Assembly (NCBI GenBank): GCA_964585685.1
Contig: CAZPEP010000044.1
Span: 5,458 to 69,457 of the forward strand
DNA from: an uncultured Eubacteriales bacterium
GTDB taxonomy: Bacteria; Acidobacteriota; Aminicenantia; Aminicenantales; Saccharicenantaceae
Direction of reading: 5' to 3'
DNA length: 64,000 bases
Positions within the stretch are counted from its first letter, which is position 1. Every line of letters begins with the position of its first letter. The notes below the pieces were generated by a model. It was given only the letters and a program-made list of their open reading frames with translations, ran no database searches and was not told the origin of the DNA. A program made the translations under genes and the position numbers. Below are positions 36 through 59,812 of this stretch, one piece after another.

Positions 36-581
36 ATGGCCGGCCCATGGTCCTCGGACAGGGATCTCGAAGCCCTTCTGGCCCGGTTCACGAACTTCAT
101 CCGGGCCCAAATCCAGAAGTTCGAGGTCCAGAGGTTCGGGATCGATCCGGACGATATCGCTCAGGAGGTTCGGATCAAGATCTGGAAACTCATCAAGAGT
201 GAGAAAAATATCAGCAGTTATGCGGCCTATATTAAGAAGATCGTGGATACCGTGGTGATAGACCAGCTCCGGCTGCTGAAGAAGGACGAACAGCTCTATA
301 GAATGGAGAAGCAAAAACAGGTCGCAGAGCAATTGAACGGATACAGGCCCGAGGTCCTTCGGAACGCCCTGATGAAGGAGGCCGTCGGAAAGGCTGTCGA
401 ATCCCTCATCGAGAGCCGAAGGAACGTGGTCAAGCTCTACCTTTTCGAACTGAGCATCGAGGAGATCTCCCGGTTTTACGGCTGGAGTCTGCACAAGACG
501 CGCAATCTTCTGTATAGGGGCCTGGCCGACCTGAAAAGGTCCCTAAAAAGGGCGGATATCGGAAATGGGCATGAGCGATAG
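36..581 (+). CDS. ECF-type RNA polymerase sigma-70 family factor
   Basis: 181 aa. Sigma region 2 and region 4 helix-turn-helix (LYLFELSIEEISRFYGWSLHKTRNLLYRGLADLKRSL). The 3' end overlaps the downstream anti-sigma start by 17 nt, as in typical sigma/anti-sigma operons. Confidence 0.85.
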   Translation: MAGPWSSDRDLEALLARFTNFIRAQIQKFEVQRFGIDPDDIAQEVRIKIWKLIKSEKNISSYAAYIKKIVDTVVIDQLRLLKKDEQLYRMEKQKQVAEQLNGYRPEVLRNALMKEAVGKAVESLIESRRNVVKLYLFELSIEEISRFYGWSLHKTRNLLYRGLADLKRSLKRADIGNGHER

Positions 582-1248
582 CGAACTTCGTCGGATCTAT
601 CGGTCCTACGTCTCGGGAAGGACCTTGGCGGCCAGGGAAGGATGCCCTCCTATCGAGGACCTCCGGGAGGCCTTCGAGGACACGACACCGCAAGCGGCCA
701 AGTACGAGATCGTCGATCATATCTCCGCCTGTTCGGATTGCGCCCGGGAATTCGAGTTCATCCGAGAGGTTCGGGCGAGGGAAAAGGAACTTGCCGCGGG
801 GATACGGGAGCTCACCCGGCACCGCCGCCCCCCCATCCTGTTCCTTTCCCGGCCCCTCCGGGGCTATGCTTTCGGAATGCTGATGCTCGCCGTCGTGATC
901 TCGGGCGTCATCGTGTTCAAGCATGACCGCGCCCAAGACGAGGGACGGAGCGGGTCCACCACGATCCCCGAGGCCCTCTCCCCGTCCGGATTCGTCGAGG
1001 CTCCTCCCCCCCTGATATTCAGGTGGAAGCCGGTCATTCGGGCCGCCTCCTATGTCGTCGAGATCTACGATGAGTCCCTGCAGCTTATTTGGGAAAGCCC
1101 CCCGGTCTCGACCACAGTGGCGATTCTTCCCGATCCGCTAAAGGAAGCGCTTTCGAGCGACAAGAATTACTATTGGTCGGTGCTGGCGCTCGATTCGGAA
1201 GGGAAAATCGGCGAATCGAAGTTCGAAGCCTTCTCCCTCGATCGCTGA
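565..1248 (+). CDS. Anti-sigma factor: zf-HC2 zinc finger, single transmembrane helix, periplasmic C-terminal domain
   Basis: N-terminal HxxxCxxC motif (HISACSDCAREF). Hydrophobic helix LRGYAFGMLMLAVVISGVIVF. The C-terminal roughly 90 aa are paralogous to the C-terminus of the 59159..59812 product. Confidence 0.7.
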   Translation: MGMSDSELRRIYRSYVSGRTLAAREGCPPIEDLREAFEDTTPQAAKYEIVDHISACSDCAREFEFIREVRAREKELAAGIRELTRHRRPPILFLSRPLRGYAFGMLMLAVVISGVIVFKHDRAQDEGRSGSTTIPEALSPSGFVEAPPPLIFRWKPVIRAASYVVEIYDESLQLIWESPPVSTTVAILPDPLKEALSSDKNYYWSVLALDSEGKIGESKFEAFSLDR

Positions 1249-4178
1249 CCCACGGAGGCGCTTCCCCGCCCCCTCCCTTCGCGTGAGGAATCCGGGCCGA
1301 AATCCCCGTTCAAAACGAACGCGGCCCAGTGGAACGGATGGGCATATTTTGATCGCAGCATCCGGACCTTGGCAAACCTCAGGGCCGCGGCCTTGCCGTA
1401 GCCCCGCGACAGGTATTCATAGAAACCATCCATGAAATAGGCCGTAGACCTGTCCCCGATAGGCCAGAGCGTCGATACCACCGATTTTGATCCGGCATAG
1501 AAGAACATCCTTGGGAGCCCCAAAAGCCCTTCGCCTCGCTCCAGACTGCCCCGTCCCGTTTGACAGGCCGACAGGACGACGAGGTCGGCGTCCAACCTCA
1601 GGTTATAGATCTCCCGTGCCTGAAGGATCCCGTCCTCCCCGTCGTTCCGACCGACCGAGAGGATCAGGGCTGATCGAAACGGGACCTTCTCATCCAAGAG
1701 CCCATGACAAGCGAAATGGACGATCCGGTAATCCTCAAGGGCCAGCACTTTCAGGTCCTCCTCCGCGGCCCGGGTCCCAAGCAGGATGTCTTTGGACCCT
1801 TTGGGGAAATGCCCGGCGATATCCAAGACCTCTTTCTTGCTGAACGGCAACTGGGAAAGATCGAAACCCTGTCCCTTATAGATCTCACCGACCGTCCATC
1901 CCGCCGTGGCATGCCCTTCCTTATCGACCGTCCCCGCCTTTGTCAAGGCGGGAGCGCCGAGGGCCAGAAGCGTCTTGCGCCACGGCCCAGCCGCTTTCCG
2001 GGAAAGGAAAACGAGGGAAGAAGAAGAAGGGGCATAGGATATCTCGAATCGTTCGATAAGATATCCCGAGACCGGAGCGCCGGACGGACGCAGCGTCTCG
2101 AACGGAAGGTAGTAAAGGATGCCGTCAGGGACGATAATGAGTCGTTTGAGCCCCTCGACGGGAAGGCCGGCGAGGGGCGGGAGGAGCTCGTCGGCGATCC
2201 TTTCCGCCGCGAGTCTCCCAGTAAACCCCTTCCTATCGGGAATCGAGAGGGCCTTGAGATAGCCCCTCAAGGACCTTTCGATCACCTCTCTGGGAGGGAG
2301 ATCGAAGAGCCTCACGCCGTTCTTGGTGATGAAGAACATGTAGGACCGGGCATCGCCGAGGAAGTATTCGATCAGACCCGTCTTTTCGTCCAGAAATTCG
2401 TTCCGAAGTCTTTGGATCGAATAAAGATCGGACGAGACCAAGCCCACAAGTCCGGGCTGTTCGGCTTTCATTTCGGAGATGAGCCTCAGCGATTCGTCTT
2501 CGGCGCGGCCGAGCTTCTTGAGCTTCTCGCCACGCTCCGCCTGCCTCAGGGCAGGATTGGATAACTCCAGAATGAGCGCCGAGATCTCCCTGGATATCTC
2601 TTCCTCCCTCTCCTTCAGGCCCTGCGTCAACCCGACCCGAAAATCGATCCTGGCCTCTCCCAGGCACTCGAGAAAAGCGCGGGCTTTCGCCTTTTCGACG
2701 ATGACGAACATCTCCTCGAGGCGGGTCCCGGACGGGTCCTCGTGGGAGAGCCTAAACAAAAGATTCAGAAGGCTCTCGAAGATCCCGAGCTTGTTCCTGG
2801 CAAAGCCGGCCTTGAACGTTTCCAGGAAGATCCGGCTCCTGATCGTATCGATCACGTCCACGGATTTCTGATAATAATGGAGGGCGTTGACGAGGTCTCC
2901 CCGTTTTTCGAGACATTGACCGAGCCCAAAGTAGGATTCCCAGACGGTATCTTTAAATAGATGAATCGCAGGAAGATCAACCGCATTTGAAAAGAGCTTT
3001 CGAGATTCGTTCAATCTATTCATTTTAAGAAAAACATTTCCTAAATTATTATATATGTTGCCAATAGCCTCTATGTTTTTTTGCTCGTTTGCCTTTGATA
3101 GTGCTAATTTAAAAAAGCTGATTGCGGTATCATATTCATTAAGATTTATATATATCGTCCCTTTATTATTTAAAACTTCAATTTCGGTTTTGACATCTGG
3201 AGACTTGCTCAGCATGTTCAAGCATCTATTAAAATAGCCAAGAGCCTCAATAAAATCGGACCTAATGTTGCTCTGATATGCTTTCTTCTCGAGTACCACA
3301 CCAATGTTGTTGTATGTTTTACATACATCAAGTGCTCGCCCATTCTCTAAGTCAATAGACAATGAATTCTTAAAGTGAATGAGCGCGTTATCATAATCAC
3401 CAAGATTCATGCTAATAAGACCAATATTGCTAACACATTCTGCTTCGGTTTGGCTGTCATTAAGCGGCCTTAAAATAAGAAGCGCCTGCTGGAAATGTCG
3501 GAGGGCCTTTGAATAGTCCGTCGATTTCCAGAAGTAGAGGCCGAGGTTGTTCAGGCATCGCCCCTGTTCGATCTTGAGGTTGAGTCTCATTGCGATTTTC
3601 AGGGCCTCTTCATTGTTCGAGAGGAAGCTCTTCAGGTCGTTCATTTGCCAGTATGTCCCGCTCATCTGACGGAGGCACTTGGCGACGAACTCCTCGCCTT
3701 TGATCCTCCGGCCGATCGCGAGCGCTTCTGAGAACGCCTCCAGGGACCGGGGCAGGGCGTTCGAGAGACGGAGGTCCTTCCCCTGATTGTACAGCCGGAT
3801 GATGTCCAGGGCCGCCCGGCTGATGAAAAGTACTCCGTCCGAGCCGGGAGTCCCGGCCTTCCGGGAGGCCTCGGAAAAGTTCCCCTCGGCCTCGCGGATT
3901 CGCCCCAGGTTCCATTGGAGAAGTCCCAGCTTCATCAGGCACGCGGCTTCGGCCGCCGTATCGTTCGCTTGCCGCGAGATCGTCAAGGCCTCTTGGAACC
4001 GGTCGATGGAACTCTCGAAATCGCCGCGGGCCCTGGCCTCTTCCCCCTTCCGGAAAGCCAGAGTGTAGGCTCCATTGTCCCGAACCCCCGGCTTGTCGGG
4101 GAGGTCCGTCCCCGTCGCGGCCGCGAACCCGGCGAGGGCCCCCGCCAGAAGAATGATGACCCTGCTTCCCCTCCGCAT
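1170..4178 (-). CDS. Secreted TPR-repeat / CHAT-domain (caspase-like His-Cys) protein
   Basis: 1002 aa. N-terminal signal peptide. Long run of TPR-like repeats. C-terminal CHAT hallmarks HFACHG ... LSACQTG. Convergent 79-nt overlap with the anti-sigma gene. Contains an AT-rich internal segment. Confidence 0.8.
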   Translation of the reverse strand: MRRGSRVIILLAGALAGFAAATGTDLPDKPGVRDNGAYTLAFRKGEEARARGDFESSIDRFQEALTISRQANDTAAEAACLMKLGLLQWNLGRIREAEGNFSEASRKAGTPGSDGVLFISRAALDIIRLYNQGKDLRLSNALPRSLEAFSEALAIGRRIKGEEFVAKCLRQMSGTYWQMNDLKSFLSNNEEALKIAMRLNLKIEQGRCLNNLGLYFWKSTDYSKALRHFQQALLILRPLNDSQTEAECVSNIGLISMNLGDYDNALIHFKNSLSIDLENGRALDVCKTYNNIGVVLEKKAYQSNIRSDFIEALGYFNRCLNMLSKSPDVKTEIEVLNNKGTIYINLNEYDTAISFFKLALSKANEQKNIEAIGNIYNNLGNVFLKMNRLNESRKLFSNAVDLPAIHLFKDTVWESYFGLGQCLEKRGDLVNALHYYQKSVDVIDTIRSRIFLETFKAGFARNKLGIFESLLNLLFRLSHEDPSGTRLEEMFVIVEKAKARAFLECLGEARIDFRVGLTQGLKEREEEISREISALILELSNPALRQAERGEKLKKLGRAEDESLRLISEMKAEQPGLVGLVSSDLYSIQRLRNEFLDEKTGLIEYFLGDARSYMFFITKNGVRLFDLPPREVIERSLRGYLKALSIPDRKGFTGRLAAERIADELLPPLAGLPVEGLKRLIIVPDGILYYLPFETLRPSGAPVSGYLIERFEISYAPSSSSLVFLSRKAAGPWRKTLLALGAPALTKAGTVDKEGHATAGWTVGEIYKGQGFDLSQLPFSKKEVLDIAGHFPKGSKDILLGTRAAEEDLKVLALEDYRIVHFACHGLLDEKVPFRSALILSVGRNDGEDGILQAREIYNLRLDADLVVLSACQTGRGSLERGEGLLGLPRMFFYAGSKSVVSTLWPIGDRSTAYFMDGFYEYLSRGYGKAAALRFAKVRMLRSKYAHPFHWAAFVLNGDFGPDSSREGRGRGSASVGQRSREKASNFDSPIFPSESSASTDQ

Positions 4179-4195: not shown

Positions 4196-4286
4196 ATATA
4201 ATATGAGACCGTCCGGGATGTCAATTTTATCTCATTCCCTGAAAACCTACCCGTTTCATTGACTTTTCTCCGTTCCGGCCTATACT
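4196..4286. promoter_or_regulatory. Divergent sigma-70-like promoters: TTGACT-16-TATACT (+, 4259..4286) and TTGACA-17-TTATAT (-, 4196..4224)
   Basis: Hexamers read directly in the AT-rich gap between the CHAT start (4178, minus) and the 4309 plus-strand gene. Confidence 0.45.
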
Positions 4287-4308: not shown

Positions 4309-5265
4309 ATGAGACGTGCAACGATCCTGGCTGCGGCGGCGATCCTCCTGATCGTTGGACCTCTGTCCGCCCAGGCGAAAAGGACGCGGACGGCCGGGAA
4401 GCGATTGGTCGCCACCGTCCCTTTATCGTTCAAGTTCACGGGTTGGGTGTCCGGCGCACCGGCCAAAAAGCTGACGGGCAAGGCTCTTGTCGCTTATCTC
4501 GGCGGGGCCGCCGATGTGGCCCTGCAGTACGGAGTCAAGGACGTTTCCGTCCACCGCTTCAGGCCGGCGGCCCGCACGAAGAAGACCGCTGGCCGGGAAT
4601 TCACCCTCGAGCTGTTCCGGATGGATTCAGCCGCCGACGCTTTTGGCCTTTTCTCTCTCGGGCGCCGGAACGCGGACCGAGCGTCGGCCGCCGTGGCCGC
4701 GCCGAACGTAACCGGGCCGGACAGGGCCGCTTTCGTCAAAGGTTACGTCTATGTCAATATCCGGACAAAGGGGTGCGAGGAGGTCGATGTTGAGAAGATC
4801 GCGGCCGCCGCGGCCAAACGGATCGGTCTTCCCGCGGACCCGCCCCCGCCCGGAATCGCTGGACTCCCCAGGTCGAACATCGTCCCGGGAAGCGAGCGCT
4901 ACATCCGGGGGAATATCACGGCCGGGGCCGAATCTCCGCTCTTGAACAGGGATTTCTGGGGATTCCGGACGGGGACGAGCCGGGCCTTCACGGCCCGCTA
5001 CAGGCCCAAGGACAGTAAGCTCATCGTCGTGGAATTCGTCGAATTGCCTGAGGGCCTCGCCCGAAGCGCCCTCGAGCTCTTCAAGGAATATCTGGAGGAC
5101 GTCCGGGAAGAGGGCGGCGTCGTGACCGGCGCCGATGTCGCCGGAGGCGTCTGTCTCTTCGGCGTGTCCGGGAAGACCGCCGCTCTGATCATCGGAGAGC
5201 CGGACCCGGGGATCGCGCGGGCCCGCCTTTCGGAAGCTCTGGCCGAACCCGGGGACCGGAAATGA
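4309..5265 (+). CDS. Secreted hypothetical protein
   Basis: 318 aa. Signal peptide MRRATILAAAAILLIVGPLSAQA. Consistent GC3-rich codon usage. No recognisable catalytic motif. Confidence 0.5.
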   Translation: MRRATILAAAAILLIVGPLSAQAKRTRTAGKRLVATVPLSFKFTGWVSGAPAKKLTGKALVAYLGGAADVALQYGVKDVSVHRFRPAARTKKTAGREFTLELFRMDSAADAFGLFSLGRRNADRASAAVAAPNVTGPDRAAFVKGYVYVNIRTKGCEEVDVEKIAAAAAKRIGLPADPPPPGIAGLPRSNIVPGSERYIRGNITAGAESPLLNRDFWGFRTGTSRAFTARYRPKDSKLIVVEFVELPEGLARSALELFKEYLEDVREEGGVVTGADVAGGVCLFGVSGKTAALIIGEPDPGIARARLSEALAEPGDRK

Positions 5266-5287: not shown

Positions 5288-5752
5288 TCAAACAGGAGAT
5301 GTCAGCGCCGAGAACGTAAAGTCCCTATAGTGTTCAAGGATGTCCAGGATGAGGGCCTCCTTGGTGATCTTCATGATCTCCCCAGGGGAAAGTTCCTTCA
5401 TGAACTCCATGGCCCTCTCTTCCAAGACGGCGGACTTCGACTTTCTTCCTCTGAGAACGAGCCCAAGCTTGAGTTCGTAGGCGTTCTTCGGAAGGACGAC
5501 CCGATAGTGGAGGTTGTCCGTGTTCGAGCCGGGAAAGCTCAGTTCGAAGTTGATGGAACGGCCCTTGTCTTCGCGGAAACGGACCTTGACGCCGTAATCC
5601 CGCATCTCTTCCTTAAGGCTTTCGAAGGCCGGTTCAGCGATGAATTCGCAGAACTGGGCGAAGCTCTCCAAGGTATCGGCCTTGGCCTTCTCTATGAGCT
5701 TAAAGGCATCGAAGTGCTTTCTTAGCTCGTCCTTCCAGGTTTCTCCGGACAT
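5288..5752 (-). CDS. Hypothetical cytoplasmic protein
   Basis: 154-aa ORF with plausible composition; no recognised domain. Confidence 0.4.
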   Translation of the reverse strand: MSGETWKDELRKHFDAFKLIEKAKADTLESFAQFCEFIAEPAFESLKEEMRDYGVKVRFREDKGRSINFELSFPGSNTDNLHYRVVLPKNAYELKLGLVLRGRKSKSAVLEERAMEFMKELSPGEIMKITKEALILDILEHYRDFTFSALTSPV

Positions 5753-58566: not shown

Positions 58567-58595
58567 TTGTCAACTCATTGGGCGCCCTTTATAAT
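58567..58595 (+). promoter_or_regulatory. Sigma-70 consensus promoter TTGTCA-17-TATAAT upstream of the second ECF sigma gene
   Basis: Exact hexamers with 17-nt spacer. Lies inside the over-extended ORF-track start, so the real start codon is downstream (TTG about 58629). Confidence 0.55.
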
Positions 58596-59102
58596 ACGGG
58601 CGTGACCGAGAACAGGGCCGGGATCGACTTGGATGAGCTTGTCCTCAAGTTCAGGCCCGTCGTGGCCTTCCGGGTCCGAAAGGCCATCGGGGGGGCTACC
58701 CCAGACTGGGAGGACGTGGCCGACGGGGTCATCACCCAGGTCATTGAAAAGATCCGGAACGGGGAATTCCGCGGGGAATCCTCCATAGGGACGTTCATCT
58801 ACACCATCACGAGCCGCCGGATCATCGACCACATCCGTGAGAAGACCAAGGTCCTGAGGCACGCCCCGGAGCCCGCCCCCTTTCCGGACCCCAGCGAGGC
58901 GGTCGAGACTCAGGAACGGGCCGCCCTGATCGCCGAAGCCGTTAAGGGGCTCAAGCCGAAGTTCCGGGAAGTCCTTTACCTCTATTACTATAAGGAATTG
59001 CCCCGGGAGGAAGTGGCCAAAAGGCTGGGGATCCCGCCCCGCCGGGTCAGCGAACGCGTCAATTACGCCCTCAAGCTCATCAAAAAGGACATGAAAAAAT
59101 GA
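58578..59102 (+). CDS. ECF-type sigma-70 family factor (second copy); true start probably about 58629
   Basis: Region 2 (DWEDVADGVITQVIEKIRNGEF) and region 4 HTH (LYLYYYKELPREEVAKRLGIPPRRVSERV). Confidence 0.8.
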   Translation: MGALYNTGVTENRAGIDLDELVLKFRPVVAFRVRKAIGGATPDWEDVADGVITQVIEKIRNGEFRGESSIGTFIYTITSRRIIDHIREKTKVLRHAPEPAPFPDPSEAVETQERAALIAEAVKGLKPKFREVLYLYYYKELPREEVAKRLGIPPRRVSERVNYALKLIKKDMKK

Positions 59103-59158: not shown

Positions 59159-59812
59159 GTGGCGGAAATGAAGACATGCCGTTATGAGAGTTGGATCGAC
59201 GGCTACCTCCTCGGGAAGCTCAGCGAGAAGGAGACCGGGGAGTTCGAGAAACATTATTTCGAGTGCGCTCCCTGTTTCGCGAAGCTGGCCGAGCAGGACG
59301 AGATCATCGGCGTGCTGAAGCGCGACCGGTCTGCGTTCGTCGCCGAGGAGCGGCCTGCCATCGAGACGAGGAAGACCGCCTGGTACGATAGGGCCTTCTC
59401 ATTCTTCACCCCCCGCCAGTGGGCGTTCGCCGGAGCGGCCGCCGCCCTGCTCGTCGCCGTCCTCACCGTCACCTCCCTCTTCCGCAACGCCCCGCCCGAG
59501 TTCGTGTTGAACGGGGAGGACACGGTCCGCGGGAGCTCCCTGACCCTGATCTCCCCGGTCATCGACATCGGCTCCATACCCGCCTTTTTCGAGTGGAGGG
59601 CGCTCGGGACGGACGTGGAATACCAGGTCTCCATCTACAACGGCAAGCTCCTCTGGAAGACGACGACCAGGGACAGCCGCCTCAGTCTCCCCGACGACAT
59701 CAAGGCCCTTATGACCGCCGGCCAAAAGTACTCCTGGCAGGTCAAGGCCTTCTCCTCCCAGGGCACCCTCATTGCCGTCTCCAGCCGGGTCCAGTTCACG
59801 ATCAATCATTGA
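59159..59812 (+). CDS. Anti-sigma factor: zf-HC2, transmembrane helix, periplasmic domain paralogous to 565..1248
   Basis: HYFECAPCFAKL zinc finger. TM helix FAGAAAALLVAVLTV. C-terminal FxWR ... IY ... LxW ... LPD ... YxWxVxA pattern shared with the first anti-sigma. Confidence 0.7.
   Translation: MAEMKTCRYESWIDGYLLGKLSEKETGEFEKHYFECAPCFAKLAEQDEIIGVLKRDRSAFVAEERPAIETRKTAWYDRAFSFFTPRQWAFAGAAAALLVAVLTVTSLFRNAPPEFVLNGEDTVRGSSLTLISPVIDIGSIPAFFEWRALGTDVEYQVSIYNGKLLWKTTTRDSRLSLPDDIKALMTAGQKYSWQVKAFSSQGTLIAVSSRVQFTINH

Follow-up and report, generated by a model that had tools for sequence, protein, structure and literature searches.

At the left end of a 64,000-nucleotide (nt) stretch of DNA from an uncultured bacterium of the Aminicenantales (assembly GCA_964585685.1, contig CAZPEP010000044.1, positions 5,458 to 69,457 of the forward strand; here called the window, position 1 being its first letter) lie a gene for a sigma factor of the extracytoplasmic function (ECF) type, a gene for a single-pass anti-sigma factor and, on the opposite strand, a gene for a protein in which TPR repeats precede a CHAT protease domain (CHAT1). 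An earlier note on this DNA, made from the letters alone, had described these three open reading frames (ORFs) and had proposed that CHAT1 cuts the anti-sigma factor in the periplasm and so releases the sigma factor. The three ORFs were borne out, together with the overlap of the sigma and anti-sigma genes and the convergent overlap of the anti-sigma and CHAT1 genes, at these positions:

36-581, + strand: ECF-type sigma gene (181 amino acids, aa; sigma-2 and sigma-4 regions only)
565-1248, + strand: single-pass anti-sigma gene (227 aa)
1170-4178, - strand: TPR-CHAT gene, CHAT1 (1002 aa)
1170-1248, both strands: convergent overlap of the 3' ends of the anti-sigma and CHAT1 genes (79 nt, from ORF coordinates)

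The arrangement is far beyond what chance would give, since it was seen again in dozens of divergent genomes. The 79-nt overlap stems from a 43-aa tail of CHAT1, disordered in the AlphaFold model (pLDDT about 30), which lies opposite the conserved coding sequence of a fibronectin type III (FN3)-like domain of the anti-sigma factor. Among the relatives listed, only closer ones have the tail, and several of those are without it; in relatives of less than about 45% identity the protein stops 4-12 residues past a conserved NGD. Because no terminator-like site was found between the convergent genes (1170-1248), their transcription may interfere.

The Encoded Proteins

The sigma factor passes the Pfam cut-offs for Sigma70_r2 (24.5 bits, cut-off 24) and Sigma70_r4_2 (26.3 bits, cut-off 25.7) only barely, falls below that of the NCBIfam sigma70-ECF model TIGR02937 (39.2 bits vs 42.9), and had no matching sigma chain at E<=0.001 in a sequence search of the PDB. 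A local hidden Markov model (HMM) recovered orthologues at 188-282 bits in 37 genome loci, and the family is also found in 80 metagenome loci. The gene shares 17 nt (ORF coordinates) with that of a cognate anti-sigma factor and is preceded by a conserved bipartite promoter motif of its own, as is expected of ECF factors. By its sequence, we class the protein as a divergent ECF-type (group IV) member.

The earlier note had assigned the anti-sigma factor to zf-HC2. The H-x3-C-x2-C motif is indeed present (HISACSDC in translation), while a Pfam zf-HC2 match was lacking at E<=0.01. The residues C27, H52, C56 and C59 are invariant in 25 homologues, so that the ligands of a zinc anti-sigma factor (ZAS), namely H-x3-C-x2-C plus an upstream Cys, are all in place, and the sequence of this CHCC arrangement resembles that described for DdvA of Myxococcus, to which we return below. 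The curated zf-HC2 cut-off is reached by related or analogous anti-sigma factors at four other loci (L047, L077, L064 and L052), and those of L068, L075 and a second pair in the window stay slightly under it. In the AlphaFold model a helical N-terminal part leads into a long helix (97-125) holding a hydrophobic stretch that would span the membrane; the chain has pLDDT below 50 across residues 118-144, as for a disordered linker, and ends in a beta-sandwich (151-224, pLDDT about 85) for which Foldseek returned FN3 domains. The features are as follows:

643-741, + strand: codons of the CHCC zinc motif (invariant residues)
about 853-921, + strand: hydrophobic membrane segment, within model helix 97-125
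about 922-1008, + strand: disordered linker (AlphaFold model)
about 1009-1239, + strand: FN3-like, putatively periplasmic domain (AlphaFold model, Foldseek)

The protein would bind and inhibit its sigma factor, which is indirectly supported by the distances of its N-terminal domain, as these follow the sigma distances. A conserved arginine in the juxtamembrane linker (R128) was considered as evidence of a CHAT cleavage site and dropped, the identical motif being present in a paralogous anti-sigma factor without a CHAT gene at 59159-59812.

CHAT1 matches the Pfam CHAT family with E 1.9e-70 (residues 657-959) and has many TPR matches besides. The His-Cys dyad named in the earlier note was confirmed, in translation, as HFACHG at 1701-1718 and SACQTG at 1554-1571, and both H825 and C872 are invariant in 103 homologues; CHAT1 thus has the marks of a CHAT peptidase, a PF12770 domain with conserved catalytic His and Cys. 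The AlphaFold model (pLDDT 85.5, pTM 0.82) begins with a helix (3-21) and a disordered stretch; a long TPR superhelix comes next, then a middle part made of helices, and last the CHAT domain:

4113-4178, - strand: signal-like N-terminus, MRRGSR followed by VIILLAGALAGFAAA
about 2829-4073, - strand: TPR superhelix (Pfam TPR families, AlphaFold)
1302-2210, - strand: CHAT domain (Pfam)
1704-1706, - strand: codon of His825 (translated, invariant)
1563-1565, - strand: codon of Cys872 (translated, invariant)
1173-1301, - strand: disordered lineage-specific tail (AlphaFold, C-termini of homologues)

Since this N-terminus is signal-like, and N-terminal hydrophobic segments are found in most of the listed CHAT1 orthologues having a complete N-terminus, it is plausible that CHAT1 is exported and resides outside the cytoplasm. 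The best Foldseek match of the model in the PDB was DdvA (E 1.6e-16, about 980 columns), ahead of Csx29 and separase, and in the PDB sequence search DdvA was the only CHAT-domain chain found (E about 1e-5).

Co-Conservation of the Protease with the Sigma/Anti-Sigma Pair

The association was counted from both sides. Starting from the protease, 35 CHAT1-type genes were followed by at least 1.2 kb of downstream DNA, and 29 of them abut an anti-sigma/sigma pair convergently under strict criteria. One locus keeps the pair beside a broken CHAT ORF (L054), one has the sigma gene only (L027), and in a locus from Terriglobia (L068) the same sigma family is found in an operon ordered sigma, anti-sigma, CHAT. 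Starting from the sigma factor, a metagenome scan gave 80 loci, with sigma identities of 47-86%, and the anti-sigma gene was present in 79; where at least 150 nt past the anti-sigma gene were available, a convergent CHAT1 gene followed in 61 of the 63 metagenome loci. CHAT and anti-sigma genes are therefore co-conserved (29-33 of 35 CHAT-anchored and 61 of 63 sigma-anchored loci), the opposite of what the earlier note had said would count against its proposal.

More distant ECF sigma and zf-HC2 anti-sigma pairs directly adjoin TPR-CHAT genes in Bacteroidales, Acidobacteriaceae, Terriglobia and Blastocatellia, and in these loci the genes are mostly co-directional and operon-like. An operon ordered sigma, anti-sigma, TPR-CHAT was found in each of Terriglobia, Acidobacteriaceae and Bacteroidales. 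As adjacency is kept although the genes are convergent in Aminicenantes and operonic elsewhere, the association of the protease with the pair is real, two-way and robust to rearrangement. On one Aminicenantes contig (CAWEYF010000012.1) the module is present as two paralogous copies separated by 130 kb, and both have a CHAT gene of their own (L036, 101299-115923; L161, 245711-256713). A single metagenome scan turned up more than 580 sigma relatives, and the module is abundant in Aminicenantes of sediments, wetlands and peat.

These counts bear on whether the genes might be functionally unrelated neighbours that owe their proximity to nothing but inherited synteny. A single class, Aminicenantia, supplied most of the loci, which are thus not independent events, and a second TPR-CHAT gene, CHAT2, is conserved beside ndk with or without the sigma cassette; on the other hand, adjacency outlasts inversion and re-ordering and is seen again in other phyla, where the sigma families are distant ones, paralogous modules each retain a CHAT gene, and a fused form exists. 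We consider it highly improbable that synteny alone is the explanation.

Co-Variation of CHAT1 with the Periplasmic Part of the Anti-Sigma Factor

Distance correlations were calculated over 64 modules, with CHAT2 as a same-compartment control (n = 18). The distances of the anti-sigma periplasmic part correlated with those of CHAT1 at r 0.68-0.70, compared with 0.46 for the sigma factor and 0.44 for its own cytoplasmic part. Given the sigma factor, the partial correlation of the periplasmic part with CHAT1 was 0.59 (permutation p <= 0.0005), and with the sigma factor given CHAT1 it was -0.21; the cytoplasmic part, by contrast, follows the sigma factor (partial r 0.53 given TPR). When CHAT2 was used as control, the CHAT1-specific component persisted (0.47 vs 0.12).

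With two-way co-conservation, adjacency despite re-ordering and co-variation, the link in function that the earlier note drew from the protease to the sigma/anti-sigma pair is strongly supported, and we regard the coupling of CHAT1 with the pair as very probable.

Secreted proteins with the same FN3-like domain were also found without any sigma factor, encoded directly upstream of TPR-CHAT genes in one Rhodothermales and one Bacteroidales locus. Both, from metagenome-assembled genomes (MAGs), carry TPR repeats after the FN3-like domain:

L072, 846-1874, + strand: secreted FN3-like and TPR-repeat protein (Rhodothermales MAG; HMM i-E 2e-6)
L076, 4385-5512, + strand: secreted FN3-like and TPR-repeat protein (Bacteroidales MAG; HMM i-E 3e-7)

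At the sequence level this suggests that it is the FN3-like domain that accompanies TPR-CHAT. The same pairing, found even where there is no sigma factor, would fit a reversed order of control, in which the linker and FN3-like domain are a membrane tether and a securin-like pseudo-substrate inhibitor of CHAT1, and cleavage frees CHAT1 for other targets in the periplasm, with the sigma factor set loose as a by-product; separase, a structural relative of CHAT1, is held by the pseudo-substrate securin (PMC11506125). This argument, however, is purely analogical; an inhibitor-like motif was not identified, and the conserved linker Arg occurs also in the CHAT-less paralogue, so that we judge control in this direction to be improbable.

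Promoters of the Sigma and CHAT1 Genes

The sigma gene is preceded by the bipartite motif TGAGAA-N17-CATCTATA, that is TGAGAA-N17-(C/A)(A/C)TCTATA, with fixed spacing, in 23 of 38 genome loci and, as an independent check, in 54 of 75 metagenome loci (shuffle means <=0.06); no sigma70-like promoter was found upstream of the sigma gene in those loci. For this genome the motif falls just left of window position 1, and it was located on a metagenome contig of the Joint Genome Institute (JGI) that encodes, with flanks, a protein identical to CHAT1 (L080, 14190-14227). Because autoregulation is usual for ECF factors, we infer that the motif is the sigma factor's own promoter.

Two kinds of site were found before CHAT1. 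A sigma70-like promoter, TTGACN-N16-18-TWNNWT, is present in 11/33 and 23/32 loci (shuffle means 0.4 and 1.1), and an ECF-type motif, TGAGAA-N16-18-CGTC, in 11/33 and 10/32 loci (shuffle mean <=0.09); the latter shares the -35 element and the spacing of the sigma motif but has CGTC as its -10 element. Upstream of CHAT2 the ECF-type motif was found in 0 of 46 loci. The putative promoter region of CHAT1 in the window, read from the sequence, comprises:

4196-4234, - strand: putative CHAT1 promoter region
4219-4224 and 4196-4201, - strand: candidate housekeeping-type site, TTGACA-N17-TTATAT
4229-4234 and 4206-4211, - strand: near-miss ECF motif, TGAGAT-N17-CGGTCT, overlapping the housekeeping-type site

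The imperfect ECF match of the window is not included in the family counts, and its sigma70-like site rests on the looser pattern together with those counts, a promoter scan with a stricter -10 element omitting it. Judged from such motifs, CHAT1 appears to be made constitutively in most genomes and to be boosted by the sigma factor in some, which is easier to reconcile with a standing sensor or protease under feedback than with a pure output of the sigma factor.

If CHAT1 were such an output, it would be a secreted protease against envelope or environmental stress belonging to the sigma regulon, with no part in sigma activation. The ECF-type promoter before CHAT1 in 11/33 and 10/32 loci and the co-transcription of CHAT downstream of the sigma/anti-sigma genes in other phyla are both what one would expect in that case, and, as those who drew up the ECF classification emphasise, a neighbouring gene may be a target rather than a regulator. 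Most CHAT1 genes, however, have a sigma70-like promoter instead or additionally (23/32), the ECF match of the window gene is imperfect, the anti-sigma periplasmic part co-varies specifically with CHAT1, and both the fused architecture of DdvA and the operons of FN3 proteins with CHAT point to a physical partnership. An output role alone seems to us quite unlikely.

Within the 64 kb of the window, position weight matrix (PWM) and pattern searches for further ECF-type promoters gave nothing above chance. On this contig, a perfect TGAGAA-N17-CGTC stands 36 nt upstream of the start of a sigma-54 activator gene, which suggests, by sequence, a cascade from the ECF sigma factor to the sigma-54 activator. 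The activator was rejected as a general member of the regulon, as only 4 of 39 loci have the ECF-type motif before it.

A divergent subgroup (L036, L041 and L042) has a different upstream motif, ATGACGA in L036 and ATAACGAC in L041 and L042, before a similar CATCT(A/G)TAC element; this suggests that paralogous modules may have insulated promoter specificities. Finally, a segment of the sigma coding sequence (..NEKKIK.YSSYI..) resembles TGAGAA-N19-TCTTAT, with PWM scores of 18-19 bits. Such promoter-like sites inside the sigma coding sequence, as at L007 5663-5700, L008 9891-9928 and L028 8218-8255, are probably a by-product of codon content.

Gene Neighbourhood

Relatives of CHAT1 are nearly all from Candidatus Aminicenantes, and one Aminicenantes MAG contig has the same gene order with a CHAT identity of 77%. 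Local HMM searches of 79 CHAT-anchored genome loci gave the conserved order ndk, CHAT2, in some loci a sigma-54 activator on the opposite strand, sigma, anti-sigma and the convergent CHAT1. The genes to the left of the sigma gene are just outside the window and were read on the JGI contig:

L080 15248-18307, - strand: CHAT2, second TPR-CHAT paralogue (1019 aa), about 1.1-4.1 kb left of window position 1
L080 14279-15223, + strand: sigma-54 activator (314 aa; AAA+ and helix-turn-helix, without receiver domain), divergent from the sigma gene

CHAT2 lies across the sigma gene from CHAT1 and was not mentioned in the earlier note. Its N-terminus is signal-like, and at its C-terminus a conserved membrane anchor precedes basic residues. 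In Aminicenantes it adjoins ndk with or without the sigma cassette, which is often lacking. The sigma-54 activator gene adjoins the sigma gene divergently in 39 loci. No cas genes were found within 20 kb of the module, nor CBASS or CRISPR genes near it (L080).

Other genes of the window were noted as follows:

4309-5265, + strand: secreted DUF6599 protein, divergent from CHAT1
4259-4286: sigma70-like promoter of the DUF6599 gene, TTGACT-16-TATACT
5288-5752, - strand: 154-aa protein, no Pfam family, no signal peptide
58578-59102, + strand: second ECF sigma gene (Pfam r2/r4)
59159-59812, + strand: zf-HC2-type anti-sigma gene, paired with the preceding gene

The DUF6599 gene was set aside as a member of the module, since it is not co-conserved (one weak match in 79 loci), although a DUF6599-like ORF is also found upstream of a Bacteroidales module (L064, E 1e-9). 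The gene of the 154-aa protein is conserved in 7 genome loci (136-158 bits), where it stands upstream of CHAT1 in the same orientation. In two further loci a distant ECF-like sigma/anti-sigma-like pair lies upstream of CHAT1, at about 1.2 kb in L001 (3097-4640) and about 4.5 kb in L002 (3-1249), so that there the CHAT1 gene is flanked by a sigma/anti-sigma-like pair on each side.

In the second pair of the window, the periplasmic domain is a homologue of the FN3-like domain in the first anti-sigma factor (28% identity, E 2e-8), and this pair might be served in trans by CHAT2 or CHAT1.

Proposed Mechanism

By analogy with DdvA and its sigma factor DdvS, we propose that the three genes form an extracytoplasmic module, a split counterpart of DdvA-DdvS, in which CHAT1 would be the site-1 protease of the anti-sigma factor; of the mechanisms considered we hold this to be the most likely one, while on whether CHAT1 has this role our judgement is evenly balanced. 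The ECF sigma factor would be held at the membrane by the CHCC-zinc single-pass anti-sigma factor. CHAT1 would be exported separately and, with its mostly housekeeping-type promoter, would already be there before induction; it would dock on the FN3/linker region of the anti-sigma factor. The His825/Cys872 dyad would be switched on by a signal, probably a protein or peptide that binds to the TPR superhelix, and would clip the periplasmic part of the anti-sigma factor (site-1 cleavage); a site-2 intramembrane protease and cytoplasmic proteases would then free the sigma factor. The latter would transcribe its own operon from TGAGAA-N17-CATCTATA and, in some genomes, also CHAT1 and the sigma-54 activator from TGAGAA-N17-CGTC. 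Of these steps, the export of CHAT1, its docking, the cleavage, the signal and the site-2 step are inferred.

Several observations weigh against CHAT1 as a site-1 protease. Three CHAT1-type loci are without the pair, and no site-2 protease was identified here. The ECF-type promoter on about a third of the CHAT1 genes fits an output of the sigma factor equally well. The co-variation is confounded by compartment-wide rate effects, the anti-sigma C-terminal part giving 0.51 with CHAT2 given the sigma factor, and because such effects exist the co-variation is supportive only. The second pair of the window has no adjoining CHAT gene, its neighbours coding for an HD-domain protein and a PSP1 protein, and it shares the juxtamembrane Arg motif, so that this motif is not CHAT-specific. 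As for the model system, proteolysis by DdvA is itself a hypothesis: catalytic mutants behaved as the wild type under the conditions tested, in which the signal was absent (PMC11506125). In addition, PDB searches detected no sequence similarity of the sigma factor and of the N-terminus of the anti-sigma factor to DdvS and DdvA, and for this reason the split and the fused systems may have been assembled independently.

Part of this evidence would be met by a role of CHAT1 as a periplasmic co-sensor or partner, RseB-like or ligand-presenting, that binds the FN3/linker region and gates another site-1 protease, with its own catalysis aimed elsewhere or at itself. The same co-conservation and co-variation data apply to such a partner, TPR arrays are protein-binding modules, and the largely constitutive promoter is what a standing partner would have; moreover, the bulky TPR-CHAT part of DdvA blocks RseP, and its catalytic mutants showed no phenotype (PMC11506125). 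The invariance of the dyad in 103 homologues, instead, places catalysis under selection, and Csx29, the closest characterised TPR-CHAT acting in trans, does cleave a sigma inhibitor. We find a partner that does not cleave the anti-sigma factor unlikely, while giving it real weight.

How DdvA turns on its sigma factor is hard to study, in part because protease and substrate are one polypeptide; here they are separate proteins, and binding and cleavage can be tested directly. Going further, a large class of ECF sigma/anti-sigma pairs, spread over several phyla, could have separately encoded, exported TPR-CHAT proteins as their dedicated site-1 proteases or as obligate sensor subunits. These proteins could recognise a specific FN3-like domain, with several insulated copies of the module per genome and possibly CHAT1-CHAT2 hetero-dimers. 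Regulated intramembrane proteolysis would then have its first periplasmic trigger that is caspase-like and acts in trans. We put this forward tentatively and lean somewhat against it. The CHAT active site of DdvA lacks a three-helix motif and is completed in trans within its dimer, and by analogy with that dimer a hetero-dimer of CHAT1 and CHAT2 is conceivable. Operons of a similar kind occur in Bacteroidota and other Acidobacteriota, so that, should cleavage by CHAT1 be borne out, there would be a widespread caspase-like route to the activation of ECF sigma factors, and some of the many orphan CHAT proteins of bacteria would gain a function. Two candidates come out of the analysis as well, a promoter motif for the sigma family and, in the FN3-like domain, a recognition domain.

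Comparison with Known Systems

Of the earlier note's interpretation, the functional coupling stood, whereas its statement that the mechanism had not been experimentally characterised is out of date, given the work on DdvA (PMC11506125), on Csx29/Csx30 (PMC10028731) and on the CHAT neighbours of ECF54 (PMC8999054).

In DdvA of Myxococcus a zinc anti-sigma factor is fused to a periplasmic TPR-CHAT part, for which a site-1 role followed by RseP was proposed (PMC11506125). The module shares with DdvA-DdvS (PDB 8rot/8rw5) an ECF sigma factor, a CHCC-zinc single-pass anti-sigma factor and a TPR-CHAT protein with a His-Cys dyad, in our case putatively periplasmic, so that two proteins of the window match the two halves of the fused DdvA. 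It differs in that the TPR-CHAT stands alone as a polypeptide, with a signal-like N-terminus and a promoter of its own that is mostly of the housekeeping type, in that the anti-sigma factor carries a small FN3-like domain in place of TPR-CHAT, and in that the pair is flanked by CHAT2, a paralogue with a C-terminal anchor. Fused DdvA-like proteins have been reported solely in Myxococcota and in one Comamonas. Here the anti-sigma factor and the TPR-CHAT are encoded by two genes on opposite strands; as the defining fusion is absent, the module stands outside the DdvA family, though most likely it functions as DdvA does.

Cleavage of a sigma inhibitor by a TPR-CHAT protein has been demonstrated experimentally for Csx29 and Csx30, in the cytoplasm (PMC10028731). 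In that system, the craspase Cas7-11-Csx29/Csx30/CASP-sigma (PMC10028731), a TPR-CHAT protein acts in trans on the inhibitor of an ECF-like sigma factor, as we propose for CHAT1, and the overall fold of Csx29 and CHAT1 is the same (Foldseek E 5e-15). Craspase, however, is cytoplasmic and RNA-guided, with no membrane step, and Csx30 is unrelated to ZAS anti-sigma factors. CHAT1 itself is not a Csx29: it scores 15.1 bits against the NCBIfam model NF041237, with a cut-off of 300, no cas genes lie within 20 kb, and its N-terminus is signal-like.

The proposed logic, a cut by a periplasmic sensor-protease, an intramembrane cut and the release of the sigma factor, is that of DegS-RseA-RseP-sigmaE. 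DegS, though, belongs to the HtrA-type serine proteases and senses through a PDZ domain; CHAT1 would be a caspase-like cysteine protease with a TPR sensor, and no RseB, DegS or RseP was identified here. The CalpL-CalpT-CalpS system is similar in that a dedicated protease cleaves an anti-sigma-like protein and frees a sigma fragment complex, a cleavage that is proposed for our case; CalpL differs in being a Lon-type protease (SAVED-Lon), activated by cyclic oligoadenylate, cytoplasmic and CRISPR-associated.

Genes for CHAT-domain and other peptidases are conserved near ECF54 sigma factors, for which proteolytic control was proposed (PMC8999054, citing Huang 2015 and Casas-Pastor 2021); in the main text of the latter, CHAT is not mentioned. 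ECF54 is defined in Actinobacteria and is without an anti-sigma factor, whereas here, in Aminicenantes, a cognate ZAS-type anti-sigma gene accompanies the sigma gene (79/80 loci). Our literature search found no paper describing the split, three-gene form. The idea of a protease acting on an anti-sigma factor to control a sigma factor has its precedents in DdvA and Csx29/Csx30, and what is new is this split form, with protease, anti-sigma factor and sigma factor encoded by three separate genes.

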